Shown: positions 7,419-41,611, numbered from the stretch's first letter. The stretch: DNA of 64,000 nt from a virus (IMGVR_UViG_3300027674_000001:1-64000); one strand, 5' to 3'. Translations and numbers: made by a program. The notes: generated by a model from the sequence alone, not told the origin.

Positions 7419-7424
7419 ACAGAC

Positions 7425-19143: not shown

Positions 19144-19153
19144 CATTTGCCCT

Positions 19154-20641
19154 ATGCCTATTGCACCTCGCTCTACTGTCGAGCCTGTGCCCCCTCTTAC
19201 CTACGCGGGTGCTATACAGGAATTATCTCGCGCCGATCAATGGCAAGCATCCCTAGCCCGAGACTCCCTCCGCGATTTCATCAAACAGAATTGGACAATC
19301 GTAGAGCCCATTAAGAAGCTTATCTGGAACTGGCATCACTATGTATTCTGCGATGTGTTAGAACAGATTACCGCTGGCAAGATACGACGTATCGTAATTA
19401 ACGTGCCCCCAGGTAGCTCGAAAAGTCTTTTTGCATCCGTTTTTTGGCCAGCGTGGGAATGGGCTAAAGATCCATCTCTCCGCTACCTAACCGCGTCCTA
19501 TACCGATGCCAACACCATCCGAGATAACCGTAACGTTAGATTCATCGTTACCTCGGATAACTACAAAAAGTATTACTGGGCCAACCCCACCCACGTAGAC
19601 TTGGTGGCACTCGACGCTGCCCAATCCGCCAAGATTCGATTTGACACCACCGCTAAGGGTTGGCGTATCGCTACCTCTGTCGGCGGCATCGGTACCGGCG
19701 AGCACCCTGACAGAATTATTATCGATGATCCGTTGAAGGCTAAGGATGCCGACTCCGATGTAGAGTTAGCCGCGTGTCAAACATGGTTCGACGGTACTAT
19801 CTCCACACGTGGCGCGAGCGAACGAATCGCGATAGTGGTAATCATGCAGCGGTTACATAGGAGAGATCTAAGCGGGTATCTATTGGGTAAGGGTGGCTGG
19901 GATCACTTAATGCTCCCGATGAGATTCGATCCCAAGCGGGCCGATCCAAGGGACATGAGAACCCAACCGGGCGAATTATTGTGGCCAGAGTTGTGGACGG
20001 AAGCGAAGGTGCGACAAGAGGAGATAGACCTAAACCAATTTGGGGCCTCGGGGCAGCTACAACAAGATCCAGTACCAGCCGGTGGTGGCCTATTCAAACG
20101 AGAGTGGTTTACATTCGTGGATCAATCACCAGCCCGGTGCCGCCGATGCCGAGGATGGGATACCGCAGACACCCCCGGCGGAGGCAACTGGACGGTTGGA
20201 ACTAGGTTAGGGTACGATGATGAAATGGGCGACACCTACATAGAGCACAACATCCGAGGGCAATGGGGGCCAGGTGAGGTATCTACTAATATCAAGATGG
20301 CAGCCGAAATGGACGGGGTAGCATGTCTTATTCGCGAGGGCAGCGGGAGTGGTAAGGCTACAACCGAGGCGAGGGGTAAGATGCTAGCCCGGTACGATTA
20401 CGCCGCTGCCCCCGAGACTACCAAGACGGGTAATAAGATTCAACGAGCTAGCCCATTCCGTGCGCAGTGTGAGCTGGGTAAGGTTAAGATAGTGAGAGGA
20501 CCGTGGAATGAAATGTATATTGATGTGTTGTGTTCGTTTCCTGTTGGGGTTGTGGATGATGACGTGGACAGTACGAGCAACGCGTATAATGGACTCGTGG
20601 GAGATATGGAAGCAATGGATGGATTAGGGGTGACATGGTGA
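19154..20641 (+). CDS. Terminase large subunit
   Basis: Walker A-like VPPGSSKS, Walker B-like RIIIDDP, then the IVVIMQRLH segment and a C-terminal nuclease-like region typical of TerL. ATG 19154 is the first start after the upstream stop. Confidence 0.85.
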   Translation: MPIAPRSTVEPVPPLTYAGAIQELSRADQWQASLARDSLRDFIKQNWTIVEPIKKLIWNWHHYVFCDVLEQITAGKIRRIVINVPPGSSKSLFASVFWPAWEWAKDPSLRYLTASYTDANTIRDNRNVRFIVTSDNYKKYYWANPTHVDLVALDAAQSAKIRFDTTAKGWRIATSVGGIGTGEHPDRIIIDDPLKAKDADSDVELAACQTWFDGTISTRGASERIAIVVIMQRLHRRDLSGYLLGKGGWDHLMLPMRFDPKRADPRDMRTQPGELLWPELWTEAKVRQEEIDLNQFGASGQLQQDPVPAGGGLFKREWFTFVDQSPARCRRCRGWDTADTPGGGNWTVGTRLGYDDEMGDTYIEHNIRGQWGPGEVSTNIKMAAEMDGVACLIREGSGSGKATTEARGKMLARYDYAAAPETTKTGNKIQRASPFRAQCELGKVKIVRGPWNEMYIDVLCSFPVGVVDDDVDSTSNAYNGLVGDMEAMDGLGVTW

Positions 20642-25332: not shown

Positions 25333-25468
25333 CCTCCACCCCTACATCTTGCGAGGGGTAGAATCCTACCCACTCCGTGGTACAACTTGCCCCCGAGGAC
25401 CTATCTCCTTGGGAGCCCGCACCTACTCACCGTCTCGCCTCTCCGGGTCCACCCGGGGTACCCGAGCC

Positions 25469-27274
25469 ATGGCTGCCCGGGATGCCCACGAGCTATCCCT
25501 TGCCCACGGTACCGCTGCTGGCCCTGGCCCAGAGGACCCTACCGCCTCCGCTACCCTCCGTTCGGCCGAGTCCGATCTCCTAGGTAGGGCGCGCCTCGCC
25601 GAGCGGTTCTCTGCTCTCCGGGACGGCATCGGGTACGGTGGCCGGCGCGATTACTACCGTCTCCTAGGCTACAAGGAACGTCTACTCCCGCAGGATTACC
25701 GAGCGCGGTATAAGCGGGGGGGTATCGCCGAGCGGTGTGTTGAAGCCTACCCCAAGGCTACGTGGTCAGGTGGCGCCTCGATCGTCGAAGACCCCGATCC
25801 CAATAACGTTACTGAGTTCGAGGACAAGACTACTACCCTCTGTGATCGTCTCGCCGTCTGGAAGGAGATCATCAAACTAGATATCCAAATGGGGCTAGGC
25901 CGGTACGCAGCTCTCCTTATCGGTACGGGTGACAAGGATCTAGAGGAGCCCCTGAAATCCGGCTCTCTCTCCGGCCCTGAAGACATTATCTACATCACCC
26001 CGCTTACCGAGGACCGAGCCCAAATCCAGCAGAGCATTACCGACACCACCGATCCACGGTTTGGCCTACCTGAGTTCTACATGTGTTATCTTGGTATCCC
26101 GGCCTATTCCATGGTTGAGGATGACATTGGCCCATACTCTGGCGCCTCTCATGCTGTAACCAAGCGAGTCCATCACACGCGAATTATTCACGCGGCCGAG
26201 CAGTGTCTATTTGATAATGTATTCGGTAAGCCCCGCCTCCGTGCCGTGTGGAACTATCTAGATGACTTGTTAAAGGTGTCCGGTGGTGGCGCTGAAGCCT
26301 CCTGGCAGCGGGTAGATCCCGGTATCCACGTGAACATCGACAAGGACCTCCGCATAGGGAAGGAGGAGCTTAAAGCCCTGCGCGAGATGATTGAGGAGTA
26401 CCAGCACGGGGGTATATCGCGTCTCATCCCCACTCGTGGTGCCGATGTTAAGATGTTGAACGCCCTCGTGGACAAGTGGGGGCCTAACCAAGATGCCGTC
26501 ACTCGGTTGATTTGCGCCGTGCTCGCTATACCCCATCGCGTACTTATGGGGAGCGAGAGAGGGGAGATGGCGTCAACCCAAGACCGGGATAACTGGTCCG
26601 ACCGTGTAGCGGAGAGACGGCAGGAGTTTGGTATCCCACTAGTCCGTGCATTCATTAGTCGTCTACAGGAATTTGGCGCGCTACCTGATGTGGATGACTA
26701 TGAGATTCAGTGGCCCGATGAGGAGGAATTAAACGAGCAAGAGAAGGGAGCCCTACTTCTCACTTACGCCCAAGCCAACCACAACAACGGGGAAGTAATC
26801 ATAACCGCCAACGAGATGCGCGATCAAGTACTAAGTCTACCTCCGCTTGTGGTAGAACCCGCCACTGATGCCAACGGTAACCCGATCGACCCCACCCAAG
26901 TAGCGGCAGATGGGTCTACTGATGTACCGGGCCAAGGTAATAAGCCACTCAACAATACCCCTACATCGGGTGATACTGCGGGGGCTCCGGGTACTCCGGG
27001 CGCACCAGGTACAGGCACAGGTTCGGGCGGGCCTACTGCCACCGATCAACAGCGGATGGTGCAACCGGATCTAGTTGTTGGTAACCCTGGTAGCCCTGGC
27101 AAGGTTAAGTCCTCGTCCTCGTCCTCGTCCTCATCTGTAATCCGGGTAAGTGCCATCCGGTTTGCATCTGGCAAGACAATCCCCATCGCCAAGATTCGAT
27201 CGCCGGAAGTGCGCCGCCTAATTGCCACCAAGCTATCCGTACAGCGTAAATTACGACGCAACGGGCTACTGTAA
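25469..27274 (+). CDS. Portal protein (DUF1073-like)
   Basis: Size, position upstream of the protease/scaffold and capsid genes, and the segment YRLLGYKERLLPQDYRARYKRGGIAERCVEAYPKATW typical of DUF1073 portals. ATG 25469 was preferred over the listed 25349. The C-terminus has Gly/Pro-rich and poly-Ser tracts. Confidence 0.75.
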   Translation: MAARDAHELSLAHGTAAGPGPEDPTASATLRSAESDLLGRARLAERFSALRDGIGYGGRRDYYRLLGYKERLLPQDYRARYKRGGIAERCVEAYPKATWSGGASIVEDPDPNNVTEFEDKTTTLCDRLAVWKEIIKLDIQMGLGRYAALLIGTGDKDLEEPLKSGSLSGPEDIIYITPLTEDRAQIQQSITDTTDPRFGLPEFYMCYLGIPAYSMVEDDIGPYSGASHAVTKRVHHTRIIHAAEQCLFDNVFGKPRLRAVWNYLDDLLKVSGGGAEASWQRVDPGIHVNIDKDLRIGKEELKALREMIEEYQHGGISRLIPTRGADVKMLNALVDKWGPNQDAVTRLICAVLAIPHRVLMGSERGEMASTQDRDNWSDRVAERRQEFGIPLVRAFISRLQEFGALPDVDDYEIQWPDEEELNEQEKGALLLTYAQANHNNGEVIITANEMRDQVLSLPPLVVEPATDANGNPIDPTQVAADGSTDVPGQGNKPLNNTPTSGDTAGAPGTPGAPGTGTGSGGPTATDQQRMVQPDLVVGNPGSPGKVKSSSSSSSSSVIRVSAIRFASGKTIPIAKIRSPEVRRLIATKLSVQRKLRRNGLL

Positions 27275-29678: not shown

Positions 29679-30713
29679 ATGCTACCGGAAATCTCTATTG
29701 CCCCTCCCTCGATCTTTGAGGGAGTGCCCGCTGAGTACCACGATAACCCGATCGGGTACATTCGCTCGTGTGCGCCCTTGCCCCTCCACGCGGAGGAATT
29801 GATTGACAAGGCGATTACCCAGGTGGCCCTAGAGCGCCTGGTGATTGCTGACGACATCGATTCCATGGGGCTCTCCACTCCCCTCCCCAACTGGCTAGCG
29901 GTAATGAACTTCCGTTGGCAGAAAATGTCAAAGATCGGAAACGCTGTCTTCTCCATGCTGCCGGACGTACGGGGCGAGGATGACAAGGTAGACCTTGGGA
30001 TCGATAGCTTGCCCATCTACTGTATTACGTCAAAGTTCAACCTGCACGCCCGTCTATTCTCCGAGTGGGAGCGGACCGGAATCCCCATCGATACCACCAT
30101 GGTGCAGCAGCACACGCGGCGGGTGAGTGAGGCCATCGAGGTATCCACCATCTGGGGTCCGCCTGCTAACTTCCAAGTCAACGGGGCCACGGTTCCCGGA
30201 CTCCTTACCGCGCCTAACGGTTCCATCTTCCAGTACTCCTCTAACCTCAAGTGGGATGATCCCTCGAAAACTGGTATCGAAATAGTGGATGATGTGCTCG
30301 GCATGATCGACGCCGAGCAGGCCAACCAGATGTATGGCCCATACATCCTCTATGTCGGGACGAAGTACGGCAACGTCCTTAACCAAGATTACAAGACTGC
30401 CAACGTCAACACGGTTACCACCCGTCAGCGCCTCTTGGAAATCGAGGAAATCTCGGCAATCAAGAAGGCGGATCGTCTCCCCAAAGACACCGTGTTGATG
30501 ATTCAGCCCACGTCCAACGTAGTCAAGATGATTAAGGGCCAGAGTCCTACCGCTGTCTCGTGGATGGAAGGCCCCCCTGGACTCCAGACTCGCCGGTACA
30601 TGATTCTCGCGTGTATGATCCCCCAGGTAATCGAAACCTACTCCGGTGGCACGAATAACGCTGGTCAGAGCGGCGTAGTCATCGGGACTAGTAACGGAGT
30701 TGTGGGGCAGTAG
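29679..30713 (+). CDS. Major capsid protein (HK97-fold, encapsulin-like family)
   Basis: 344 aa, in the position expected after the scaffold and decoration genes. Its segments resemble the encapsulin/linocin-type shell proteins used by DUF1073/DUF2213 phages. Confidence 0.7.
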   Translation: MLPEISIAPPSIFEGVPAEYHDNPIGYIRSCAPLPLHAEELIDKAITQVALERLVIADDIDSMGLSTPLPNWLAVMNFRWQKMSKIGNAVFSMLPDVRGEDDKVDLGIDSLPIYCITSKFNLHARLFSEWERTGIPIDTTMVQQHTRRVSEAIEVSTIWGPPANFQVNGATVPGLLTAPNGSIFQYSSNLKWDDPSKTGIEIVDDVLGMIDAEQANQMYGPYILYVGTKYGNVLNQDYKTANVNTVTTRQRLLEIEEISAIKKADRLPKDTVLMIQPTSNVVKMIKGQSPTAVSWMEGPPGLQTRRYMILACMIPQVIETYSGGTNNAGQSGVVIGTSNGVVGQ

Positions 30714-30736
30714 GGCAGTAGGGCAATGGGGTAGTA
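30705..30736 (+). repeat. G-rich octamer tandem repeat forming a canonical G-quadruplex motif
   Basis: GGGCAGTA GGGCAGTA GGGCAATG GGGTAGTA. The G3+ tracts at 30705, 30713, 30721 and 30728 are separated by 4-5 nt. It overlaps the capsid stop codon (30711-30713). Confidence 0.7.
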
Positions 30737-30804
30737 GGACGCGAACGAGTCAACCGATAACCAATCACCAGCCACGTATCCTCTAGGGAGGTAAGACACC
30801 AATC

Positions 30805-31440
30805 ATGGCTTCTACAGCAACCGCAACCACAGATACAGACACCGGCACCGATACCGCCGCGCCTAAGGTAACCGTACCTACTCGCCGATATCGTCTCCTT
30901 CGTGGCACCATTGCACGCCGCGAACACGCTATTGCCCACCGTGACGCATCTACTGGCAAGATTAACGATCAGTACCTTAACGGTACTACGGTGGTGTATT
31001 GCGCGTACGACCCCGAGAAGGAAAACTCCGCTGGCAACATTATCGAGCTTACCGATGATGAGGCCGGCCCGTATCTTGAAGCCAATCCCCCTCGCGTGGA
31101 GTTGATCGGTGGCCATGGTGCGCATCGGGTGGCCGCGCGTCCCACTCCGTCTACTCAGGCTCAGGCTCCGCAGGCCCCAGTAGAGTCCTCGCCAGTACCC
31201 CGTCCCGCCGCGCTGATTCCTGCGCCTGCACCCGAAACGCTAGAGGAGTTGGCGCCCGATGGCAACGATAATGACATGGTAGCTATCATGTTTGGTCTAC
31301 TCGCTCCAGCGGCCATCGAGCTAATCAATGGCATGGAAACCGTGGCAGAATTGCAATCCGCTCGATACGGCGAATTGGCTGGGCGTAACCGTAAGGGAGT
31401 CATTGACGCCATCGATGCCCGGATGCCGGACGAGGTGTAA
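30805..31440 (+). CDS. Hypothetical head-module protein with a Thr/Asp-rich N-terminus
   Basis: 211-aa ORF with RBS GGGAGG. N-terminus MASTATATTDTDTGTDT. Pro/Ala-rich middle. Confidence 0.55.
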   Translation: MASTATATTDTDTGTDTAAPKVTVPTRRYRLLRGTIARREHAIAHRDASTGKINDQYLNGTTVVYCAYDPEKENSAGNIIELTDDEAGPYLEANPPRVELIGGHGAHRVAARPTPSTQAQAPQAPVESSPVPRPAALIPAPAPETLEELAPDGNDNDMVAIMFGLLAPAAIELINGMETVAELQSARYGELAGRNRKGVIDAIDARMPDEV

Positions 31441-31588
31441 CCGTGGCCTACATAAGATATCTGGCGAAAAGATACTTAAGACCGATAACTGTGAGACGGG
31501 AGAGAAGGAGAGGCATAGATCACCGGGCCGTGTATTTGTTTGGTGTCAGAGTGGGCATCATAGAAGACTAACCAAATAAGATACTCCG

Positions 31589-32269
31589 ATGCCCATCTCT
31601 CTCATTACCACGGTCGGTGATCCTGCGGCGAATTCCTATACCTCTCAACTGGAATTCGTACAATACATTGCCGTGCGGTTCCCGCCGATCGCGTGGGCTC
31701 TAGCTGCATCCCAATTAGTGCCACCTGTGCTATCTCCCGCGAATGGCCCCGCGAGCGATCTATTGAATGCAACCCTCATCGCCGCTGCCCGTGAACTAGA
31801 CAACTGTTTCCGGTGGAACGGTACCGTAGATGCCATCACATTCCCTAACCAAGTCCGTGCTCACCCTCGCAAGGGACTACTTACTCGCAATGGCCAACCG
31901 CTCGACCCCGCCTCTATCGCGGTAGACTTGAAGAATGCTCAGTGTGAGTTCGCCCTACAGTTGAACGTGAGCGATTTACTGGGGGATATCCAGCAACTCA
32001 AGCAGCACGTCGCATCCGTCAAGGCCGGCTCGGTACAGGTGAATTTCCAACAGCATCTAATGGCTACGTACGACTCAGCCGATATAGACGTGCGTATGCG
32101 AGGCCCGGCATTCAACGCAGTGTCGAACGTAGTCCCAGACGAAGTGCGACGACTCTTAGTCCCATCGTGGTACCGCATGCCCCACGTCCGGCGAAACGTC
32201 ATCGTGGGAGTGTTCACAGGCTCGGGCCGCTATCACCACCTTGGAGAGTTGGACGGAGACGACGATTAA
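31589..32269 (+). CDS. Head-tail connector candidate (gp6-like)
   Basis: The N-terminus GDPAANSYTSQLEFVQY resembles the start of gp6-like connector proteins, and the position fits. Confidence 0.45.
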   Translation: MPISLITTVGDPAANSYTSQLEFVQYIAVRFPPIAWALAASQLVPPVLSPANGPASDLLNATLIAAARELDNCFRWNGTVDAITFPNQVRAHPRKGLLTRNGQPLDPASIAVDLKNAQCEFALQLNVSDLLGDIQQLKQHVASVKAGSVQVNFQQHLMATYDSADIDVRMRGPAFNAVSNVVPDEVRRLLVPSWYRMPHVRRNVIVGVFTGSGRYHHLGELDGDDD

Positions 32270-32302
32270 CCCACACGTTATACTAAGGGAGGTACGCAAC
32301 TC

Positions 32303-32761
32303 ATGGGCGCGACATTCGATATCAAGGTAGTTAAGGGCAACCGGGCGGTACAATATCACCCCACCCACATTGCTGAGAAAAACGTATGGCCAAATTCCCC
32401 CGCTGGCCGCCGTTATCTTGCCATGCTGGATATGACGGAGGTGCAGGTACAGGAAGCTATCGATGACGGTGAAATCGGGGAGGCACCCGGCACCTACATT
32501 GAACTCTGCGGACTCGATAAGCGCCTATTTCCCACTGGCGGCTTTACCGTGCATATATCTGGTGGTAACCACGATAACCCCGAGTGTATACCCGCTGATG
32601 TAGTGTACTCGCTCAGAGACAATGGTGATACCAAGGACAAGTGGCCCAGTGCAGCCATGCGAGCCCAGCTAGAAATGGTAAAGGCTGGATGGCGCCCTGA
32701 TCGCGGTGAGGCTATGCCCGAGAGTCCAGAGCCCGAAGTAGCAGAGGGGGTGGCACCGTGA
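32303..32761 (+). CDS. Hypothetical structural-module protein
   Basis: 152-aa ORF with RBS AAGGGAGG. Confidence 0.5.
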   Translation: MGATFDIKVVKGNRAVQYHPTHIAEKNVWPNSPAGRRYLAMLDMTEVQVQEAIDDGEIGEAPGTYIELCGLDKRLFPTGGFTVHISGGNHDNPECIPADVVYSLRDNGDTKDKWPSAAMRAQLEMVKAGWRPDRGEAMPESPEPEVAEGVAP

Positions 32762-32973
32762 GCGAGCGTGACCCCGGAATCATCGTCATAGCCAAAGCCC
32801 GTATCCGGTACATTGATATTGGTGCGCCAAAAGGCAATCAACCGCAGACTAGTTATTACGTGTGCGGTCCAGTACGTGGTACCTTGGCGGAAGCGGAGAG
32901 CGATGCAGATATATTAAACAAAGCCCTCTGGGCAGATCGTATGAAGAATCGCGAAGAGGGGGCTAGTGGTTAA
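32758..32973 (+). CDS. Hypothetical protein
   Basis: 71-aa ORF with a GTGA overlap. Confidence 0.45.
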   Translation: MSERDPGIIVIAKARIRYIDIGAPKGNQPQTSYYVCGPVRGTLAEAESDADILNKALWADRMKNREEGASG

Positions 32974-33386
32974 TGGCCTTCCCCGTCGAATTACTCCGGC
33001 TCGGCGTTGGGATCGCGTCCCACCTAACCGCTGGCGTCCAGCAACCCGTGACTATTGAACCGTGGATCGGTCAAACCGCGCACGGACCATCGTACGGTGC
33101 GCCTGTCACATTCGATGGTCAATCCTCGGGCCACCCTATGCCCTTGGTAGACCTCACCACTAAGCAACGGGTAGTCAAGGGCCAATGGATCAACGTTGCC
33201 GGGACACTTACATTTCTTGGCGACGTAGCTCCCAACGGTGCTCCCGGTAGATTAGAGCCAATCGATACCCGGGACCGGATTACCCTCGCGGATGGTACCC
33301 GGTGGCCTATAGTCCAATCAGGGGGGTTTAATGATCCGGGTACAGGGCGCCCGTTGGCCCCCGAAGTGTGGCTAGGGGCAAGATGA
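32973..33386 (+). CDS. Hypothetical structural-module protein (head-closure candidate by position)
   Basis: 137-aa ORF with a TAATG overlap. Confidence 0.5.
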   Translation: MAFPVELLRLGVGIASHLTAGVQQPVTIEPWIGQTAHGPSYGAPVTFDGQSSGHPMPLVDLTTKQRVVKGQWINVAGTLTFLGDVAPNGAPGRLEPIDTRDRITLADGTRWPIVQSGGFNDPGTGRPLAPEVWLGAR

Positions 33387-33925
33387 TGGCTAAGCTAAGT
33401 GAATTTAACGAGATAGTGTGGAATGATCCACGGTTGCCTATGCACCCAGAGATGCATTTCTCTGTGTCTAAGGCAATGATATACGAGCCTGTTATCGCGC
33501 TAGATAAAAGTAGAATACTAGTAGCGGATACAGCCCGTATCGACGCCTTTTGTAAGCTACATGGTGGAGATGGTATCTATATTGGCGATCGTGTACACAT
33601 CTCATCGTTCTGTGATCTAAATATAGGTGGTGGGTATCTGATCTTGGAAGATGGTTCAACTCTTTCCCCTGGTGTCATGATCGTAACCGGATCTAGTGTT
33701 CCTGCACCCGGCCGATCGTGCTCGGCAATCTCGCCTGATGTGGTGATATCCAAGTCATTCGTTCGCGTAAATAAGAACGCGACCATATTCACAGGAGCAA
33801 TTATCCTCCCAGGTGTAACCATTGGGGAGGGTGCAGTAGTCGCGGCCGGTGCCATGGTTAACCACGATGTCCCGGATGGTGACACCTGGGGTTGCGTTCC
33901 AGCGCGGAGACTCCACCTAGTATGA
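33383..33925 (+). CDS. Left-handed beta-helix (hexapeptide-repeat) acetyltransferase
   Basis: Hexapeptide periodicity IGDRVHISSFCDLNIGGG...IFTGAIILPGVTIGEGAVVAAGAMV, as in LacA/WbbJ-type O-acetyltransferases. Confidence 0.8.
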   Translation: MMAKLSEFNEIVWNDPRLPMHPEMHFSVSKAMIYEPVIALDKSRILVADTARIDAFCKLHGGDGIYIGDRVHISSFCDLNIGGGYLILEDGSTLSPGVMIVTGSSVPAPGRSCSAISPDVVISKSFVRVNKNATIFTGAIILPGVTIGEGAVVAAGAMVNHDVPDGDTWGCVPARRLHLV

Positions 33926-34632
33926 ATATCGCGGTTGTCTCCCTTTTCCGTAACATGGTCGGACGTATTGATCCGTATATGGCGCAAATCGATACCCTAC
34001 AGCGCCACGTATGGCTCGATTCTACCGATCACACGGTTAGAGTAATAGCGGTAACTGGTGATAACACGGACGCTACCGAGGATGAATTACAGGTGTCTGC
34101 AAATCGTTATCGTGTGCCACTGTCCATCGTCAAGTGTAATCATGGGCTCCAAGTATTTCCGTCGTGCGAGGACCCCAATAGACTCGCGGCGCTTACCAAG
34201 GTATTGATGGCTGGTATGCGAGCTGTAAGCCATGACAAGTACGGAGACGATGTTGTCCTATATGTTGAGTCTGATTTGATATGGAATCCGCACCAAGTGG
34301 GATCGATCATAGATATGGCGTATCGGCGTGATGGCTACTTTGATATTATCGCGCCCATGATCTTCTGTGGTGATGGCTCTCAGTTCTATGATGTGTGGGG
34401 GTTTAGGCACGATGGTGCTAGGTTCTCATGGGATGCTCCATATACCCATGATCTACTGTACGGTGGAATAACTGAGCTAGATAGTGTGGGTTCGTGTTTC
34501 GCGTGTAGGGCGAAAGTGGCAGAGAAGGTTACCCCTATTGGTAAACTGGCCCTTGTATCGTGGTGTAACGGAGCGCGGGCGCAAGGGTATCAAGTCGGGG
34601 TCGCGCAAGGGTTTCGCGTGAGTCATCCATGA
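33922..34632 (+). CDS. Putative GT-A-like nucleotide-sugar transferase
   Basis: Rossmann-like N-terminus MNIAVVSLFRN and a DxD-like YVESD. Sits among glycosyltransferase genes. Weak by sequence alone. Confidence 0.4.
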   Translation: MNIAVVSLFRNMVGRIDPYMAQIDTLQRHVWLDSTDHTVRVIAVTGDNTDATEDELQVSANRYRVPLSIVKCNHGLQVFPSCEDPNRLAALTKVLMAGMRAVSHDKYGDDVVLYVESDLIWNPHQVGSIIDMAYRRDGYFDIIAPMIFCGDGSQFYDVWGFRHDGARFSWDAPYTHDLLYGGITELDSVGSCFACRAKVAEKVTPIGKLALVSWCNGARAQGYQVGVAQGFRVSHP

Positions 34633-34913
34633 ACGTGATAGCTACTCATATACTTGACAAGATAGACGCCGCGGATACTCTCGGCATCCCTGGTGCCTTC
34701 CAATTCGAGGCAAACGATAAAGGGATATTTTATGTTTGCCCGTGCGGTTGTCAATCATTGGGGTTTCTTGGATTTCGTGGACTTGAGGACAAGGAGCGGC
34801 CATCTTGGGAGTGGGATGGGAACAGGGAGAAGCCAACGCTATCGCCCAGTATATTGCGGCGGGCTTGCGGATGGCACGGGTTCTTACGTGGTGGTGCATG
34901 GGAGTCTTGTTAA
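34629..34913 (+). CDS. Small zinc-binding protein (DUF6527-like)
   Basis: CPCGC...W.WDGN.EKPTLSPSI...C.WHGFLR.G pattern. The family name is from memory and unverified. Confidence 0.45.
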   Translation: MNVIATHILDKIDAADTLGIPGAFQFEANDKGIFYVCPCGCQSLGFLGFRGLEDKERPSWEWDGNREKPTLSPSILRRACGWHGFLRGGAWESC

Positions 34914-34940
34914 CGTAATACTAAGGGAGGGATATAACCG

Positions 34941-35861
34941 ATGCGAGTACATGTCAAGCCGACCGGGTTACATAGCAGAGCCATGGTGCGGGTATCTAAT
35001 GCACTAACCCGTTACGCGCCCACGGGGATAGAGATAGTAGATGACCCGAGCCCGAGTGAATGTGATCTAGTGGTGTTACATGTGATCGGGCGGGATGCGA
35101 TTACGGTAGCTGAGCAGATGAATCAATGCGAGCAGAGATGGGCGGTGATCCAATATTGCCTAAAAACGGCGGGGTTTAGCCGAGAGACTTGTAAAGACTG
35201 GTTTGAGTTGTGGCGCGGCGCTGAGTGCTTGTGGAGCTACTATGATCTATCCGATGCGGCTAGCGTGGACGGATGGGATTTCTACTACGCTCCCCTCGGT
35301 CTAGACGATGCATTCCTATCTCGCTCCCACATCTCCTCCCCATCTTCTCGCCCATTCATCCTCACGTCCGGTTATGTCTCTGGCCCCGGTGCAGAACCCA
35401 TTGCCGAGGTGTGGGAGGCCGCGCGTAGACTGGGGATTAATGCCGTGCATATTGGCCCTAAAGTAGTAGAGGGGATGACAACGTATCCACCCGATTGGGA
35501 CGCGCGCCACCAGATATCCGATGGGGAGTTAGCCGAGTTGTATGCGCGGGCTACTTGGGTGGCCGCCCTTCGACATGTAGAGGGATTCGAGTTGCCCGCG
35601 GCGGAAGGACTCGCGTGTGGCGCTCGCCCCATCGTATTTTCTCAGCCCGCGCTATGGCACTGGTATGGTGACCATGCGATATACGTCCTCGATCAAAGCG
35701 GGGAGCCTCTGATTCAAGAACTGTGCAAGGTAATGAGGTATGTACCGGAGCCTGTAAGCGCCAAGGAGCACGAACAGGTAGTACGGAAATTCAACTGGGA
35801 GCGAGTGTGTACCGGGTTCTGGGCGCGAGTGCAAGCTAGCATAGGCGAGGTAGCCGCGTGA
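34941..35861 (+). CDS. GT-B fold glycosyltransferase (GT4-like)
   Basis: C-terminal signature VEGFELPAAEGLACGARPIVF matches the E(G)FG.P..EA.A.G.P motif of GT4 enzymes. Confidence 0.6.
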   Translation: MRVHVKPTGLHSRAMVRVSNALTRYAPTGIEIVDDPSPSECDLVVLHVIGRDAITVAEQMNQCEQRWAVIQYCLKTAGFSRETCKDWFELWRGAECLWSYYDLSDAASVDGWDFYYAPLGLDDAFLSRSHISSPSSRPFILTSGYVSGPGAEPIAEVWEAARRLGINAVHIGPKVVEGMTTYPPDWDARHQISDGELAELYARATWVAALRHVEGFELPAAEGLACGARPIVFSQPALWHWYGDHAIYVLDQSGEPLIQELCKVMRYVPEPVSAKEHEQVVRKFNWERVCTGFWARVQASIGEVAA

Positions 35862-36244
35862 ATTTCTCATTTGACCTAGACGGTACGATCACCGCCCACA
35901 CTGCGGTATTCGTGGCCTTTGGTAAAGCTCTCCGGGCAGCGGGGCACCGTGTCACGATACTGACAGGTATTGACTTGGGCACCTTCCATGGCCGGCGCAC
36001 CACAAAATATCCAGAACTCGCGGACACGTCTTGGTATGACGATGTTGTGACCGCAGATGACTACAACGCGAACGAGCGAGCGTTAGCGGCACAGGTAATT
36101 AATGGCAATCTAGATAATCACATTCTCGTGGGTATGTTCAAGCGGAGGATATGCCGAGAGCGTGGTATCGCGGCCCACTTCGACGATGACATATCCCATG
36201 TAAGCCCAGAACCCGGCACTGCATTATTCGGGGTGATCCGGTGA
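35858..36244 (+). CDS. HAD-superfamily hydrolase-like protein
   Basis: The N-terminal FSFDLDGTIT is HAD motif I (DxDGT). Confidence 0.6.
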   Translation: MNFSFDLDGTITAHTAVFVAFGKALRAAGHRVTILTGIDLGTFHGRRTTKYPELADTSWYDDVVTADDYNANERALAAQVINGNLDNHILVGMFKRRICRERGIAAHFDDDISHVSPEPGTALFGVIR

Positions 36245-38211
36245 AGGTGCTCTGGGTCGGAGACGCAGTGGTAAGTAGTGGGTTTAGTAAGTGTACCCAT
36301 TCCGTGTGCGATAACCTCCACGCGAATGGGCATACCGTTAACGTGCTAGGCATGTCATACCATGGTGATCCACACAAGTACCCATATGACATATATCCGT
36401 GTGTCCAGCCGCTAGACTTCGGCGGTGACGCATACGGTACCCTGCGCCTCCCAATCCTCTGTAAACGGCTCAACCCCGACGTGATTGTACTCCTGAATGA
36501 TCCGTGGAACATCAACGATCCGAATAATCAACCGTCTTACCTTGACATGCTCAAGCGAACCAAGATTGGCACCCCTGTAATCGCTTGGCTCGCGGTAGAC
36601 GGGCTCAACCAGAAGGCCGCACCCACCCTAAACGATCTAACACACGTAGTCGTGTGGACTCAATTCGCAGCGGATGAACTGATCAAGAGCGGATATAAAG
36701 GCCCCATCTCTATCGTTCCTCTCGGGGTGGACACCTCAGTATTCAACCCCAAGGATCAAGCCGAGAGCCGCGCCAAGGTATGCCCGCCAACGCTCCCTCC
36801 CGATGCCTACCTAGTCGGCGCCGTGGGACGTAATCAACCACGCAAGCGGCTCGATCTCACCATCTCGTACTTCGCCGATTGGGTTACCCGGTGCGATATC
36901 CCTAACGCCTATCTCTACCTCCACATCGGCCCAACCGGCGACGTGGGGTGTGATATTCATTCACTGGTACGATACTACGGGATGGCGGGGAGCGAAGGAA
37001 AGCCAGGACGCGTCATCATCGCTGAAACCCCTCTCGGCATGGGCTACGATGAGTCCATCATGCCGTACGTCTATTCCGCGCTCGATTGCTACCTGAGTAC
37101 GTCCCAAGGCGAGGGGTGGAATCTTCCGATGTTAGAGGCGATGGCCTGTGGCGTACCCGTTATTGGCCCTGATTGGGCTGGCCCGGGTTCATGGGCTCGC
37201 TCGGCAGCCGTCCTCATCCCCTGCACTACTACCGCTCTCACCGCTCCCATTAACGCACTCGCTTACACCATCGGCGGGATACCCGATCAACGTCACACAG
37301 TTAACATGCTCAACATGTTGTACCGGAGCGATGCCCACCGAGAGATGCACAGTAGACTTGGATTGGAATTGGCTAAGAGTCTATCTTGGCATCGCACCGG
37401 AGACATGATGCGTGGGGTAATCGAGTCGGTTGTAAAGGAGCGCACAGATAAGCGGGCAATGGTTGCGGTGCCACCTGTACCACCAAAGGTTAACGTGTGT
37501 GTGACTGTCCTTACTCGATATGATCTCCTGAGATCCTTTCTCCTATCGCTGGATGCCAGCACGATCACACCTCATGCTGTGTATATTGTAGATAATGGAC
37601 AAAGTCCAGACAAGATAAAAGAGGCCATCGCTGGGACATGTGAAAAGATCGCGTGTGTAGAGGTGGCTGGCCCTTCGCGCCGCCGTGGTCTAGCAGAATC
37701 GTGGAATTGGTTCCTAGGTCGTACTCGCGGCGAAGACCGCATCATATGTAACGATGATATCGAATTCGGCCCGCAATCCATAGAGCGAATGATCGCCGCT
37801 ACAACCGATCTAGCGTTTCCTGTTGGCATTGGATTCTCGTGCTTTTTGATCCGTGATACTTGCGTCAAGAAAATTGGCCTATTCGATGAGAAACTGTCTC
37901 CGGGATTCGCATACTTTGAAGACTGTGATTACATGACGCGAAAGGATAAGTACAACGAAACCCATGGCGGTAATGATGCTGTATCTATGGTTGATATCCA
38001 CGACACTGATATTAAGCACTTGGGCCACGGTACGCAGCGTGGTGACTTCGACGCAGAAGGAATCAAGGAATTCCGCCGTAACTACTTCGCGGCACAAGAG
38101 CGGTATATTGCCAAGTGGGGAACGTTGCCACCTGGGCTAAACCGTCTACAGGAGTCAGATGTAGAGGAGATCGGGGAGATAGTGGAATTGAGAGAGGGTA
38201 CCCATGGGTAA
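36241..38211 (+). CDS. Bifunctional glycosyltransferase (N-terminal GT4-like, C-terminal GT2-like)
   Basis: GT4 signature SQGEGWNLPMLEAMACGVPVIGP. The C-terminal half has VCVTVLTRYDLL...YIVDNGQS and NDDIEF (DxD), typical of GT2. Confidence 0.8.
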   Translation: MKVLWVGDAVVSSGFSKCTHSVCDNLHANGHTVNVLGMSYHGDPHKYPYDIYPCVQPLDFGGDAYGTLRLPILCKRLNPDVIVLLNDPWNINDPNNQPSYLDMLKRTKIGTPVIAWLAVDGLNQKAAPTLNDLTHVVVWTQFAADELIKSGYKGPISIVPLGVDTSVFNPKDQAESRAKVCPPTLPPDAYLVGAVGRNQPRKRLDLTISYFADWVTRCDIPNAYLYLHIGPTGDVGCDIHSLVRYYGMAGSEGKPGRVIIAETPLGMGYDESIMPYVYSALDCYLSTSQGEGWNLPMLEAMACGVPVIGPDWAGPGSWARSAAVLIPCTTTALTAPINALAYTIGGIPDQRHTVNMLNMLYRSDAHREMHSRLGLELAKSLSWHRTGDMMRGVIESVVKERTDKRAMVAVPPVPPKVNVCVTVLTRYDLLRSFLLSLDASTITPHAVYIVDNGQSPDKIKEAIAGTCEKIACVEVAGPSRRRGLAESWNWFLGRTRGEDRIICNDDIEFGPQSIERMIAATTDLAFPVGIGFSCFLIRDTCVKKIGLFDEKLSPGFAYFEDCDYMTRKDKYNETHGGNDAVSMVDIHDTDIKHLGHGTQRGDFDAEGIKEFRRNYFAAQERYIAKWGTLPPGLNRLQESDVEEIGEIVELREGTHG

Positions 38212-38626
38212 ATTCACTCTCTCGGGCGCAGACATCCTCGCTCGCAAGCTGGACGAAATCAAGCTGGAACTCCGCACTAAACTTGACGCGGCAATGGGCG
38301 AGGAAGCGGACGCGATTCTAGCAGACGCACAAGAGAACTACGTGCCAGAGGACTCAGGCGATCTAAAGGACTCAGGGGTAGTCACAGAAAGCAAGATAGT
38401 CACATTAGATGGCCCAATCGAGTATGGCATATCGTTTGGCGATGATAAGACAGCCGCGTATGCCATAAGTGTGCATGAGTATCCCAGCGAGCATGATCCT
38501 CGCTCGTGGAAAGCGGCCAAGGATGGCGTCCACTTCCGTAAAGGTGGGCCAAAATATTTGGAGATCCCGTTCCGTAAGGCTGAGAGTGGGATGCTTGAGC
38601 GGATCGCGTCCAAGGTGAAGCTATGA
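38204..38626 (+). CDS. HK97 gp10-family neck/tail-completion protein
   Basis: The motif YVPEDSGDLKDSG and the downstream AAYAISVHE fit the gp10 family pattern (VP.dTG.L..S ... YA..vE). Confidence 0.65.
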   Translation: MGKFTLSGADILARKLDEIKLELRTKLDAAMGEEADAILADAQENYVPEDSGDLKDSGVVTESKIVTLDGPIEYGISFGDDKTAAYAISVHEYPSEHDPRSWKAAKDGVHFRKGGPKYLEIPFRKAESGMLERIASKVKL

Positions 38627-38898
38627 TCCAAGGCCCAAACGTCAATAAGCTAATCGTGTGTAAAATGTCTATCCAAGGCGTTCCGAAGGATACACCCGAT
38701 CCGCTTAGGGCTGTTGCAGAATTCTTCGCCAGCACCGAGAACCTAAAAGAGCACGCTAAGGAGGCTACTGAGTGGGTTGAGCAAGCTATATTAGCTGTTA
38801 AGTTAGCCCCAGATAACAAGTGGGGTAATGACGATGAAGCTATAGCGGGCGAGATACTGCGCAGGATAGACGAGATAAAAGCCTCTAAAGTAAACTAG
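38623..38898 (+). CDS. Hypothetical protein
   Basis: 91-aa ORF with an ATGA overlap. Confidence 0.45.
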   Translation: MIQGPNVNKLIVCKMSIQGVPKDTPDPLRAVAEFFASTENLKEHAKEATEWVEQAILAVKLAPDNKWGNDDEAIAGEILRRIDEIKASKVN

Positions 38899-38902
38899 TG
38901 CC

Positions 38903-39319
38903 ATGCCTACGACTACGTTCTATCTCTACATTGAAGCAGTACAGGACCCATTCAGCATCGGGGTGGACTCCTCTAACCGTGCCATGTATTCGTGCAATTA
39001 CGTCTCTTGTGCCCGTTCACCCGCAGACCGGTTCACGGATGATCTAATCTCCGTCCTCACTAATCTCGGGCTCGCTACTGCCGGCACTGACACATTCTCC
39101 GGGAGTATTGCTACCATCCCCCCACAAGGCGCTGGCCCATTTACTCTCATCCTCAAGAGTAGTGGATTTGGCCCGGATCAAACCCATGCGAATGATACCT
39201 ACACTCGCCCGGCCGCCCAGATCATCGTATTCGCGGCCGATGACACTGTAGCCCAATCCCACGCTTACGCTATCTTTCACGCCCTCCATGGCATACGTAA
39301 CTCCTCGGTCACGTCATGA
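38903..39319 (+). CDS. Tail terminator/completion candidate
   Basis: 138-aa ORF immediately upstream of the major tail protein gene. Positional call. Confidence 0.45.
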   Translation: MPTTTFYLYIEAVQDPFSIGVDSSNRAMYSCNYVSCARSPADRFTDDLISVLTNLGLATAGTDTFSGSIATIPPQGAGPFTLILKSSGFGPDQTHANDTYTRPAAQIIVFAADDTVAQSHAYAIFHALHGIRNSSVTS

Positions 39320-39392
39320 GAGAGTACCACAATACAGCAGTACCCACCCCTCATGTTAACGCGGCTCATGTGGCCGAAGGAGAACAGTAACC

Positions 39393-39860
39393 ATGCCCAG
39401 CAGCAGTAATGCGATCAGCGGCCACGGCGTACAGATGGCCATCGAAAAGTTTGGTGATCCATCGGGACAGTTTACCGTGGTCGCTGAGCTAACCGGCGAT
39501 ATCAAGCGGCCAGAGCTATCCCGTCCCGAGGTAGAAGTTACGCCTCATAATGATGACATAGACACTTGGGTGTTGTCGGTTGCTACCCGAGCGGCTGTGC
39601 CATTTACCTGTAACTTCATTTACAATGACCCTACCCACGATTTCTCGACTGGTTTCCAGAAGCTCTTCGCTGCCAATCAGATTTTCGGGGTGAGGTTGCG
39701 CGGTCCCAACGGTGCATCGGGAGCCAATGAAGTCATCTTGTCCGCGCAGGTGCAGAAGATCGGCGTAGTGGACAAGATCAAGGGAGTAGAAGAGGTAATG
39801 GTCACCCTTCGCCCCCACGGTTACATGCTTGTAGATGGTAAGCCGTTCCCACACGCGTAA
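39393..39860 (+). CDS. Major tail protein
   Basis: 155-aa ORF with RBS AAGGAG, located directly before the chaperone pair and tape measure. Confidence 0.6.
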   Translation: MPSSSNAISGHGVQMAIEKFGDPSGQFTVVAELTGDIKRPELSRPEVEVTPHNDDIDTWVLSVATRAAVPFTCNFIYNDPTHDFSTGFQKLFAANQIFGVRLRGPNGASGANEVILSAQVQKIGVVDKIKGVEEVMVTLRPHGYMLVDGKPFPHA

Positions 39861-40389: not shown

Positions 40390-40821
40390 GTGTGGAACGT
40401 CGAAGGAGAGGGCGGGTTGCTGTCCGAGACTGGGATGTCTTGGGAGCAGTTTAGGGCATGGATCGACTACGCACAAGTTGACCCGTTTGGCTCAGAACGA
40501 GGTGATATGCAAGCTGCCCTAATCGCGCACACAGCAGACAACGTGAGCAGGACACTAATAAACGTCAACCGGGACCCCGATAAGTCCAACCCGGTTAAAC
40601 CGAGTAAGATAACCGATTTCCTACTCAGGTTCGGAGAGGATGAGAAGAAAGCTAAAGAGGCGGGTACCCGAGGTGCTGTGGAACCCGCTCGCCGCCATAA
40701 CCGTATCCTATCCTCCGCTGGTTGGCAAAGAACCGTGGCACAGATTAAAGACGTTGCTGATATCGCCAGTGCCACTAGGAAAACTCGCGATAGGGACACT
40801 GGTGAAATAAAGTATGAATAG
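40390..40821 (+). CDS. Tail assembly chaperone extension (gpT-like), probably made as a G-T fusion
   Basis: It is in the -1 frame relative to 39920..40375. WEQFRAWIDYAQVDPFGSERGDMQAALIAHT resembles gpT-type chaperone sequences. Confidence 0.6.
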   Translation: MWNVEGEGGLLSETGMSWEQFRAWIDYAQVDPFGSERGDMQAALIAHTADNVSRTLINVNRDPDKSNPVKPSKITDFLLRFGEDEKKAKEAGTRGAVEPARRHNRILSSAGWQRTVAQIKDVADIASATRKTRDRDTGEIKYE

Positions 40822-41611
40822 CGCGAGGGGGGTGTACGAGATTAGAAACACCGTTAACGGGAAACGGTACATCGGGTCTACGTCTTTAACTTTCGCGAAA
40901 AGGTGGGCACAGCACAGTAGCGACTTGAGACTTGGTAAACACCCCAATAGCCACCTTCAACGTTCGTGGAACAAACACGGTCCAAGGTTATTCACTTTCA
41001 AGATACTCCTGGTATGTAGTCAAGCGGACTTACTGATGTTTGAGAAAAGGTGCATCGATAGACTAAAACCTGAATACAACATTTGTCCTGTGGCGGGGTC
41101 GCGCATAGGGGTGAAACTAACAGACGAACAAAAGGCGAGGATATCAAAGGCTCACACAGGTAAGAAACTCTCCGCCGAACATAGGGCAAAGCTAATTAAG
41201 TCGCTTCTAGGGAACAAGCATCGCTTAGGGCATCATCCATCGGAGGAGACAAGGGCAAAGATAGGGTTAGCGAGTCGAAGCAATAAATACAATCTAGGGC
41301 GCAAGCCCACTGCCGAAACACGAGCAAAGATGAGCACTGCGAGACTGGGGAAGAAGTGTCCTAAGTCACCAGAGCAAAGGGCTAATATATCCAAGGCGCT
41401 CTCGGGCAATAGTAATCGTTTGGGGCGTAAAGCCTCAGAAGAGACACGAGATAGGTTGAGGGTGTCTCACTTGGGGCATAAGCACTCCGAAGAGACAAAA
41501 GCTAAAATGAGGCTAGCGAGATACAACCGCAAGCCAATCTCAGAAGAGACACGGGCCAAGATGAAGTTAGCTTGGATTCTGCGCAAGCAAAGTAAAGGTA
41601 TAGGCGCATAA
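40814..41611 (+). CDS. GIY-YIG homing endonuclease with multiple NUMOD3-like repeats (free-standing mobile gene)
   Basis: GVYEIRNTVNGKRYIGST (GIY..YIG), R..QH and N motifs, then about 7 repeats of the type S.EHR.KIS.A..G. Markedly AT-rich. Confidence 0.85.
   Translation: MNSARGVYEIRNTVNGKRYIGSTSLTFAKRWAQHSSDLRLGKHPNSHLQRSWNKHGPRLFTFKILLVCSQADLLMFEKRCIDRLKPEYNICPVAGSRIGVKLTDEQKARISKAHTGKKLSAEHRAKLIKSLLGNKHRLGHHPSEETRAKIGLASRSNKYNLGRKPTAETRAKMSTARLGKKCPKSPEQRANISKALSGNSNRLGRKASEETRDRLRVSHLGHKHSEETKAKMRLARYNRKPISEETRAKMKLAWILRKQSKGIGA

Follow-up and report, generated by a model that had tools for sequence, protein, structure and literature searches.

Which molecule is modified by a set of sugar-handling enzymes that a bacteriophage encodes among the genes for its own head and tail? 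The question is raised by the viral DNA IMGVR_UViG_3300027674_000001:1-64000 (hereafter the window, meaning the whole 64,000-nucleotide stretch that was analysed), which represents 64 kb of the soil-metagenome contig k127_275921 (ENA ERZ923212; 69,772 bp). Family and profile matches of the open reading frames (ORFs) in the window give a siphovirus-like genome layout, in which six plus-strand ORFs occupy positions 33383-38211, bounded upstream by a connector-like gene and downstream by an HK97 gp10-like gene for tail completion. We favour, with a probability of roughly 55%, the interpretation that this cassette serves the cytoplasmic glycosylation of virion proteins during assembly, those proteins being the putative acceptors.

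Soluble enzymes embedded in the connector and tail genes

The cassette and its two boundary genes are made up as follows.

32973..33386, plus strand: putative head-closure/connector protein, 137 aa, upstream boundary of the cassette (weak phrog_3881 connector match, 0.001)
33383..33925, plus strand: ORF1, hexapeptide (left-handed beta-helix) sugar O-acetyltransferase, Maa/LacA/WbbJ/WcaF-like (Pfam Hexapep, NCBIfam, PDB)
33922..34632, plus strand: ORF2, glycosyltransferase of the GT-A fold, its DxD-like motif E-S-D invariant (homolog profiles, AlphaFold2 model, Foldseek)
34629..34913, plus strand: ORF3, putative peptidase, a small zinc protein of the DUF6527/BubE type carrying a Ser-His dyad (PF20137, phrog_15183)
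34941..35861, plus strand: ORF4, compact (306 aa) GT-B glycosyltransferase of the GT4 type, EX7E motif E214..E222 (profile, AlphaFold2 model, Foldseek)
35858..36244, plus strand: ORF5, probable phosphatase of the HAD superfamily, cap-less (motifs DxDGT, T-G, K and DD)
36241..37470, plus strand: ORF6, N-terminal domain, B736L-like GT4 (GT-B, EX7E; Pfam, phrog_2170, 3oy2)
37471..38211, plus strand: ORF6, C-terminal domain, GT2 (GT-A) fused to the GT4 domain (PF00535, phrog_29879)
38204..38626, plus strand: HK97 gp10-like tail-completion/Neck1 protein, downstream boundary (phrog_5, 5.2e-8; PF04883, weak)

All six genes lie where the first-pass annotation had placed them, on the plus strand between a head-completion-type ORF and the gp10-like gene, and an independent gene caller returned the same genes on the source contig. 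Both cassette boundaries overlap the flanking virion genes: the 137-aa ORF and ORF1 share an ATGA (33383-33386), and ORF6 overlaps the gp10-like gene by 8 nt. Inside the block, overlaps of 4 nt each join ORF1 to ORF2 (which starts at 33922, not 33919), ORF2 to ORF3, ORF4 to ORF5, and ORF5 to ORF6; the sole spacer, 27 nt between ORF3 and ORF4, carries a strong ribosome-binding site (AAGGGAGGG). A crude scan of positions 30,000-39,500 found no plus-strand sigma-70-like promoter or intrinsic terminator. The coupling to late virion genes that had been proposed is thus borne out by the overlapping junctions and by the lack of an internal promoter or terminator signal. At the gene level, phage-encoded glycosyltransferase (GT) genes embedded in, and overlapping, connector and tail genes are predicted to be expressed together with virion genes.

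Hydropathy analysis detected no membrane segment in the six cassette proteins, the top 19-residue Kyte-Doolittle mean (1.72) lying in the beta-helix repeats of ORF1. The same scan of the window revealed no ORF with more than three hydrophobic segments and no flippase-like, GtrA-like, Wzx or polytopic GtrC/Oac-type ORF. These results agree with the earlier description of soluble enzymes without a flippase or GtrA, and with the proposal that the locus is unlike a classical O-antigen seroconversion cassette, Gtr-type membrane components not having been found in the window.

Profile and fold searches upheld four glycosyltransferase modules and the acetyltransferase; the HAD assignment is probable only. 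Family profiles and AlphaFold2 models were needed for ORF2, ORF4 and ORF6 because single-sequence searches of the PDB were uninformative. From its sequence, ORF6 is clearly a fusion of a GT4 and a GT2 domain. Its GT4 domain matches the Glyco_trans_1_4, Glyco_transf_4 and Glycos_transf_1 families above their cut-offs (PF13692, 34.0 bits, cut-off 27; PF13439, 32.4, cut-off 28.5; PF00534, 31.3, cut-off 26.4) as well as phrog_2170 (1e-34). The two glutamates of its EX7E motif (GEGWNLPMLEAMACG), E291 and E299, are invariant in 35 homologs, and the motif aligns with GEGFGLCSAEG of the chlorovirus NY-2A protein B736L. Indeed, B736L (3oy2) is by far the best PDB match to the GT4-family profile (E 1.2e-26), aligned over residues 1-390 against 1-393; the next matches, MshA and sucrose-phosphate synthase (SPS), follow at 1e-11 and cover the donor domain only. 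The C-terminal domain matches PF00535 over residues 419-521 (2.8e-7, 31.1 bits, cut-off 23.3) and phrog_29879 (2e-18).

The two other glycosyltransferases were recognised mainly through their families. ORF2 scored weakly against Pfam as a single sequence (GT2, 0.0077, below the cut-off); several of its 73 homologs match PF11735/PF00535, and E117-S118-D119 is invariant. The alignment-based model of ORF2 (pLDDT 96.6) returned 286 Foldseek matches in the PDB at E<=0.001, mostly GT-A enzymes, headed by the human collagen hydroxylysine galactosyltransferase COLGALT1 (E 2e-11, TMq 0.65) and followed by mimivirus R699, TarP and GalNAc-T2. In a viral library its nearest neighbours are GT-A proteins of giant viruses and uncultured phages. 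On the modelled fold, then, we class ORF2 as a GT-A glycosyltransferase. ORF4 likewise scored below the Pfam cut-off as a single sequence; it has 499 homologs, E214 and E222 are invariant, the family profile matches the PDB entries 7qsg (5.7e-8) and 6kih (1.7e-6), and the model (pLDDT 94.8) retrieves MshA, SPS, BshA and PimA (TMq 0.64-0.73) and also Gtf3, which identifies it, at the level of the model, as a GT4-like GT-B enzyme. Judged by profiles and models, the closest solved structures of the cassette glycosyltransferases appear to be B736L/A546L, whose virus family carries out the glycosylation of its capsid protein itself, and the protein-glycosylating COLGALT1.

ORF1 is a member of the hexapeptide superfamily (Pfam Hexapep, 1.3e-9, 37.8 bits, cut-off 27). 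Over residues 46-176 it resembles the NCBIfam models of maltose O-acetyltransferase, WcaF and WbbJ, and the PDB structure of maltose O-acetyltransferase, 1ocx, is matched at 2.8e-8; similarity extends furthest with maltose/galactoside O-acetyltransferases and with WbbJ/WcaF, which O-acetylate polysaccharides. Because the NCBIfam scores fall far below the equivalog cut-offs, an O- rather than N-acetyltransferase subfamily is only suggested. In ORF5, motifs I-IV of the HAD superfamily (D6, D8, T10, T36-G37, K95, D109) are conserved in 20 homologs, and relatives are rare (30 among 1.84 billion representatives). The window protein itself has no Pfam match, 4 of the 20 homologs match HAD models weakly, and the best HAD structure reached by the profile is a weak one (E 0.44). 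We call ORF5 a probable cap-less HAD-superfamily phosphatase, probable because the profile searches yield weak HAD matches only.

The first-pass annotation had described ORF3 as a small zinc protein. The zinc site stands, and the identity can be refined to a putative Ser-His peptidase of the DUF6527/BubE type: the 94-aa protein covers the whole PF20137 model (1.4e-16, 60.6 bits, cut-off 23.6) and matches phrog_15183 (2.6e-22). Its CPCGC motif (C37/C39/C41), C80, S74 and H83 are conserved in phage homologs and coincide with the C4 zinc site and Ser/His dyad described for BubE, a zinc-finger serine peptidase that removes ubiquitin-like conjugates (bioRxiv 10.1101/2024.11.21.623953). ORF3 shares with the BubE proteins of bacterial Bub operons PF20137, the C-x-C-x-C...C zinc ligands and the Ser/His pair; unlike them, it is a lone 94-aa gene without a hydrophobic extension and with no E1, E2 or Ubl gene nearby.

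Two roles considered for ORF3 were rejected. It is not part of a Bub operon, since its neighbours are glycosyltransferases and no E1, E2 or Ubl family match occurs in the cassette or its flanks; nor is DUF6527 a regular partner of glycosyltransferases. ORF3 is retained in the closest relative of the window (locus L004), and DUF6527 homologs occur in 5 further viral contigs (L013-L017) and 11 phage genomes (H40-H50), in other contexts that are not beside glycosyltransferases. We therefore treat ORF3 as probably a passenger or a gene with a separate function, possibly an independent counter-defence peptidase. These homologs are lone DUF6527/BubE-like genes without E1/E2/Ubl partners; besides the viral contigs, their carriers include Thiobacimonas, Rhodovulum, Caulobacter, Rhizobium and Microcystis phages. 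Such genes could be deconjugases directed against bacterial ubiquitin-like Bub/Bil systems, and we flag them as candidate counter-defence genes.

A position-fixed glycosyltransferase below a hypervariable stretch

Related neighbourhoods were gathered by four look-ups and from IMG/VR, GTDB genomes and JGI metagenomes. A single-sequence scan of IMG/VR gave 3 loci; much more came from scanning JGI metagenomes with a profile, and the best 80 of the 337 confirmed matches obtained there were retained. Merging of near-duplicates left 80 distinct loci, 54 of which have enough downstream sequence for a count of positions; cassette content was counted in 39 evaluable cassettes.

With the island as query, megablast returned no match from 50,697 phage genomes, so the window has no close cultured relative. 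The closest cultured phages, MaInes and StAshley of Brevundimonas, share 32-38% identity in portal and capsid (32% between the window capsid protein and their annotated capsid); their capsid-to-tape-measure region is free of glycosyltransferase genes, and in comparison with them the block resembles an insertion. As comparators lacking these genes, however, the two phages were set aside as a poor control, because their tail module differs and homology is limited to the head genes.

The uncultured relatives give a different picture. The GT4 domain of ORF6 has about 645 relatives (protein clusters) at about 50% identity, many of them on contigs of 55-70 kb. In 51 of the 54 loci the GT4 gene is followed, within 1 kb downstream, by a homolog of the gp10-like, terminator-like or tail-tube-like gene, and the gp10-like gene is its conserved neighbour across loci. 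Among the loci with GT4 at this fixed position are two prophages in Acidobacteriota metagenome-assembled genomes, on contigs of 4.4 and 5.8 Mb (L011, CBDFKO010000002.1, 491887-513041; L012, CBDFKD010000002.1, 1857-23011), with portal, capsid, GT4 and terminator genes in matching order. They provide the sole clue to a host for the clade, a lead offered by distant relatives (GT4 identity 44%).

Within the same loci GT4 is 40-56% identical, as against 27-47% for capsid, portal and tail proteins, and its N-terminal domain is no less conserved than the donor-binding one (58% vs 57%). In GT-B enzymes the N-terminal domain binds the acceptor. Conservation above that of the capsid, together with an equally conserved N-terminal domain, would point to one conserved acceptor across the clade.

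Upstream of GT4 the situation is reversed. Homologs of the 137-aa connector protein stand directly before a variable cassette in many related loci, and the stretch between them and GT4 is hypervariable, ranging from 0.8 to 7 kb. The hexapeptide acetyltransferase, GT-A and compact GT-B enzymes of the window form a recurrent trio there; ORF1 homologs recur among related cassettes, and those of ORF4 occur in at least 13 of the 39 evaluable ones. In combinations that vary from locus to locus, the stretch also holds CmcI-like rhamnosyl O-methyltransferases (10 loci), DegT/EryC1 sugar aminotransferases (5 loci), an NDP-hexose C-methyltransferase, B12-radical-SAM enzymes, additional GT2 and GT32 enzymes and class-I methyltransferases. 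A homolog of ORF5 with 60% identity holds the same place in one relative, L040. The GT4 domain itself is fused to GT2 in some relatives (L008, L009 and L040, not L004) and to methyltransferase domains in others, fusions that appear to tie it to the tailoring enzymes. Taken at the level of gene content, the changing tailoring set reads as the signature of a surface glycan under diversifying selection.

A conserved GT4 at a fixed place below a variable stretch therefore represents an anchor enzyme plus a fast-evolving tailoring cassette rather than a sporadic island. Of the island described in the first-pass annotation, the 5' part is indeed variable; the 3' GT4, by contrast, is a position-fixed, conserved resident of a clade of uncultured phages. 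Base composition divides along the same line, with GC of 0.49-0.52 and GC at third codon positions (GC3) of 0.45-0.50 in ORF1-3, against 0.53-0.59 and 0.57-0.62 in ORF4-6 and the flanks. The lower GC3 of ORF1-3 hints at a newer 5' part and an older 3' anchor.

Such diversity is familiar from bacterial surfaces, and the cassette might instead modify a host envelope glycoconjugate (lipopolysaccharide/O-antigen, capsule, exopolysaccharide or a lipid-linked precursor) from the cytoplasmic face, late in infection or during lysogeny, with a block to superinfection or the keeping of progeny from adsorbing to cell debris as possible benefits. O-antigen and exopolysaccharide loci typically contain GT4 and GT2 enzymes, O-acetyltransferases of the WbbJ/WcaF type, DegT aminotransferases and CmcI-like methyltransferases, clade members reside as prophages in Acidobacteriota genomes, and hypervariability would also fit serotype conversion of the host surface. 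We nevertheless regard this explanation as unlikely. The window contains no flippase, GtrA, polytopic membrane protein or initiating phosphoglycosyl transferase, and no integrase was found among its larger ORFs. Genes for lysogenic conversion (morons) usually lie near attachment or immunity regions; the cassette genes, unlike such morons, overlap late connector and tail genes and have no promoter or terminator of their own. Moreover, a role at the host surface would hardly account for the position next to the neck genes, which was seen in 51 of 54 loci.

A further alternative concerns the pairing of GT4 with a phosphatase, for which MshA/MshA2 and sucrose-phosphate synthase/phosphatase are known examples. 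The enzymes might act on a host cytoplasmic protein or small molecule, for takeover or counter-defence, or a GT4 + HAD pair might make a free oligosaccharide or a glycoside resembling a compatible solute. The best annotated relatives of GT4, namely MshA, BshA and SPS, use small phospho-acceptors; the HAD-like gene lies directly upstream of GT4; and many GT4 homologs match PF20706 (GT4-conflict), whose members are predicted effectors of conflict systems. We find this quite unlikely, given that GT4 is universal in the clade and the HAD gene seldom present (the window and 1 of 39 evaluable cassettes), that cassettes combining several glycosyltransferases with tailoring enzymes build oligosaccharides rather than simple glycosides, and that placement in the neck module would lack a rationale. 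As for PF20706 itself, the matches were precomputed for the homologs P0003-P0120, with the window protein matching weakly (E 0.041); the family was defined from predicted effector domains of bacterial and invertebrate immune-conflict systems (PMC8195603).

Virion proteins and other candidate targets

If the cassette glycosylates virion proteins, its enzymes would be transcribed and translated jointly with the head-completion and tail-completion gene products. The soluble GT4 of ORF6 would take a host nucleotide sugar and place the first sugar on a conserved acceptor, most likely a co-produced structural protein of the capsid, tail tube or neck. The GT2 domain of ORF6, together with ORF4 and ORF2, would extend the glycan and ORF1 would O-acetylate it, with ORF5 possibly dephosphorylating a sugar-phosphate intermediate; the outcome would be a virion coated with glycan. 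The order of these steps, the sugar donors and the protein acceptor are what we infer around the observed gene content, folds, coupling, position and hypervariability. O-antigens differ between bacterial strains; the virion glycan would probably differ in turn from phage to phage, because related phages swap their tailoring enzymes.

Three structural proteins encoded in the window are speculative candidates for the acceptor.

29679..30713, plus strand: major capsid protein (DUF6260/HK97-like; PF19774, 5e-15; phrog_771)
38903..39319, plus strand: tail-terminator-like protein, 138 aa (homologs follow the GT4 and gp10-like genes in most loci)
39393..39860, plus strand: 155-aa protein, putatively the major tail (tube) protein from its place between the genes for terminator and tail chaperones

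The putative tail-tube protein matches no family and is conserved together with GT4. Homologs of the terminator-like protein have weak precomputed Phage_tail_terminator_6 matches, and the window protein contains 21.7% Ser+Thr. At the C-terminus of the terminator-like proteins (homologs in L005-L096) we observed a recurrent R-N-x-T/S-V, which reads RNSSV in the window and RNVTV, RNQTV or RNTTV elsewhere. This resembles an N-glycosylation sequon but may represent no more than a structural strand; several relatives lack it.

As possible acceptors, the first-pass annotation had named two Ser/Thr-rich tracts, and both exist. One is a run of nine consecutive serines near the C-terminus of the portal protein (27110-27139, residues ~588-597), for which the range first given, 27129-27155, was one base out of frame; the other is a Thr-rich tract at the N-terminus of the 211-aa protein encoded after the capsid gene. 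Their proposed role is not supported, as relatives with the cassette do not share the tracts. Only 4 loci have a recognisable 211-aa protein (L004, L026, L029 and L003, the last being the window's own contig), and the post-capsid protein of MaInes has a similar Thr/Ala-rich N-terminus although that phage has no glycosyltransferase genes between capsid and tape measure. The capsid protein has a C-terminal tail longer than in relatives, an extension that is confined to the window and its closest relative and is not Ser/Thr-rich.

Several points weigh against virion-protein glycosylation. Undecaprenyl-linked precursors on the inner side of the membrane can also serve as substrates of soluble GT4 and GT2 enzymes; a host-envelope target is therefore compatible with the missing membrane segments. 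Across ~50 loci, the C-termini of the capsid, tail-tube, terminator-like and gp10-like proteins showed no consistent enrichment that would mark a conserved Ser/Thr-rich tail. The HAD assignment of ORF5 depends on motifs. We also looked, by profile for the ORF2 family and by tblastn for ORF6, for orthology to the validated glycosyltransferases of mycobacteriophage Corndog and detected none past the generic DxD region: when the ORF2 family was aligned by hhalign with Corndog gp36, gp37 and gp38, the respective probabilities were 0.06, 28 and 0.9%, the gp37 value reflecting local similarity of the DxD region only. Finally, neither the acceptor nor the donor of B736L/A546L is itself established; these proteins are uncharacterised, and GDP-mannose binds, yet the NY-2A capsid glycan contains no mannose (PMC9614988).

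Phage DNA is another conceivable substrate. The enzymes could glycosylate it, at or just before packaging, to yield hypermodified bases that evade restriction; GT-A and GT-B enzymes of phages are known as DNA glycosyltransferases (T4-type), DNA glycans are diverse, and genes for a C5-cytosine methylase and an N6/N4 methylase are present in the window, which makes it likely that the DNA of this phage is modified in some way. Creation of a hydroxymethyl acceptor base needs a hydroxymethylase or a TET/JBP enzyme. No dCMP/dUMP (thymidylate-synthase-like) hydroxymethylase or TET/JBP dioxygenase was found in ~35 window ORFs of at least 120 aa, a scan that covered the window but not the 5.8 kb of the source contig beyond it. 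The cassette lies 25 kb from the replication and methylase genes, within the neck genes, and tailoring with O-acetyl, amino, C-methyl and O-methyl sugars by a set including 3-4 glycosyltransferases is more elaborate than the DNA glycans cited in the literature consulted. We therefore judge DNA glycosylation highly improbable. Both DNA and the host envelope had been ranked as less likely targets at the outset, and with neither a hydroxymethylase/TET enzyme nor a membrane component found, that ranking stands. A glycan pathway acting on virion proteins remains the best single explanation; it has gained stronger comparative backing and the Corndog precedent, and has lost its proposed acceptor tracts.

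The remainder of the window includes replication and methylase genes, tail chaperones, a 1,921-aa tape measure and tail proteins of the LamG and pectate-lyase types. The following features were located.

5994-7418, plus strand: uracil-DNA glycosylase (UDG)-superfamily domain fused to a 3'-5' exonuclease
7425-8525, plus strand: C5-cytosine methylase gene
8522-9802, plus strand: DNA polymerase A domain
19106-20641: terminase
25349-27274: portal, followed by the head genes
31589-32269: Ad1-type adaptor
40814-41611, plus strand: GIY-YIG/NUMOD-type homing endonuclease, 265 aa (phrog_314, 4.8e-41)
52741-55548, plus strand: pectate-lyase-like beta-helix protein, 935 aa

The polymerase appears to be split by the inserted C5-cytosine methylase gene (5994-9802). 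The homing endonuclease is inserted between the tail-assembly chaperone and tape-measure genes, and a homolog fragment occurs elsewhere in a related locus (L008, 5151-5549). The 935-aa pectate-lyase-like protein, whose N-terminus has a hydrophobic, signal-peptide-like segment (MSIPRRIVLALPLALALFAGIPASS), is probably a tailspike or depolymerase.

Comparison with known glycosylation systems

Should virion proteins be confirmed as the target, virion glycosylation would extend well beyond the actinobacteriophages, probably to Acidobacteriota hosts, and the clade would offer a natural library of soluble protein-glycosylating and sugar-tailoring enzymes. It would link phage enzymes to the uncharacterised chlorovirus proteins A546L/B736L, and would raise the question of what selects for diversity of virion glycans in soil, be it evasion of defence, adhesion or stability to proteases. 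Our comparison suggests that a large clade of soil phages has, among its core traits, a non-orthologous solution to virion glycosylation.

A bolder version would make the locus the phage counterpart of an O-antigen locus, a rapidly diversifying cassette for a virion glycan coat that keeps its fixed position and is widespread among uncultured soil siphoviruses, some of them able to lysogenise Acidobacteriota. The B736L-like GT4 would prime one conserved neck, tail or capsid protein, on which swappable enzymes would build a phage-specific glycan. The resulting coat would hide virion proteins from host defences such as the ubiquitin-like conjugation of Bil/Bub systems to tail proteins, with the BubE-like peptidase removing the tags. 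We think it unlikely that this version is right as a whole; if it is, virion glycosylation would not be peculiar to actinobacteriophages but general, ecologically important and evolutionarily linked to the capsid glycosylation of giant viruses.

Among systems already described, seroconversion cassettes (GtrABC, and the O-acetyltransferases of Shigella and Salmonella phages) resemble the window in that phage-borne glycosyl- and acetyl-transferases generate glycan diversity. These systems are membrane-embedded (the flippase GtrA, GtrB and polytopic GtrC/Oac), are expressed from prophages near the attachment site and act periplasmically on O-antigen. The window locus has none of their membrane, positional or periplasmic features.

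Closer in setting are three isolated phages. In the Pontimonas phage phiPsal1 (MG835450; L098, 6979-9351) the order is capsid, GT1, methyltransferase, GT2, neck and tail completion, and in the Synechococcus phage S-CBS4 a GT4 homolog lies between portal and head genes. By tblastn, homologs of the ORF6 GT4 in phiPsal1, S-CBS4 and S-EIVl show 27-30% identity (E 2e-8 to 5e-35); no mycobacteriophage match to ORF6 was obtained. These phages share with the window a homologous GT1/GT4 in the structural module, accompanied in phiPsal1 by a GT2. Their cassettes differ in being smaller and known from annotation only, and they belong to unrelated capsid lineages with hosts among the Actinobacteria and Cyanobacteria. 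In phiPsal1, an isolated actinobacterial phage, the methyltransferase is on the opposite strand, and an HK97-type capsid gene and a gp6-like neck gene flank the block. This phage is a tractable system in which to address virion glycosylation.

Chloroviruses glycosylate their capsid protein autonomously in the cytoplasm with their own enzymes, A064R and others (PMC9614988). Like the phage GT4, which it matches over its full length, B736L (3OY2/3OY7; PBCV-1 ortholog A546L) is virus-encoded, soluble and independent of endoplasmic reticulum or periplasm, and the multidomain fusions of GT and tailoring domains in the phage clade parallel A064R. Unlike the situation envisaged for the phage, the chlorovirus glycans are N-linked to the capsid of a eukaryotic virus, and the genomic setting is unrelated.

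The nearest precedent in organisation comes from the mycobacteriophages, in which virion-glycosylation cassettes are listed for Corndog (gp35-38), Che8 (gp108-110) and Myrna in passages of PMC11600133 and PMC12363180; the same passages, citing Freeman et al. 2023 (Cell Host Microbe 31:1216), report that such enzymes glycosylate capsid and tail-tube subunits. Corndog gp35-38 comprise an O-methyltransferase and three glycosyltransferases, encoded between the genes for portal and protease inside the structural operon, and the proteins are expressed in infected cells and absent from virions (PMC4351075). In the portions of the literature found, experimental support for virion glycosylation by phage-encoded enzymes is limited to a few mycobacteriophages, in which antibody recognition was altered.

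In conclusion, Corndog and the window share several soluble glycosyltransferases and a sugar-tailoring enzyme within the late structural operon of a siphovirus, and by this analogy we adopt Corndog-type virion glycosylation as a working model for the window locus. The insertion points differ, lying between connector and tail-completion genes in the window and between portal and protease genes in Corndog; where Corndog has an O-methyltransferase, the window has an acetyltransferase, a HAD-like protein and a BubE-like peptidase; and the window phage has a DUF6260-type capsid, Acidobacteriota relatives and a likely non-actinobacterial host. A virion-glycosylation cassette in a structural operon is known already; what would be new here is its occurrence in a different, apparently large clade of uncultured soil phages, with a chlorovirus-related anchor enzyme and an O-antigen-like diversification.

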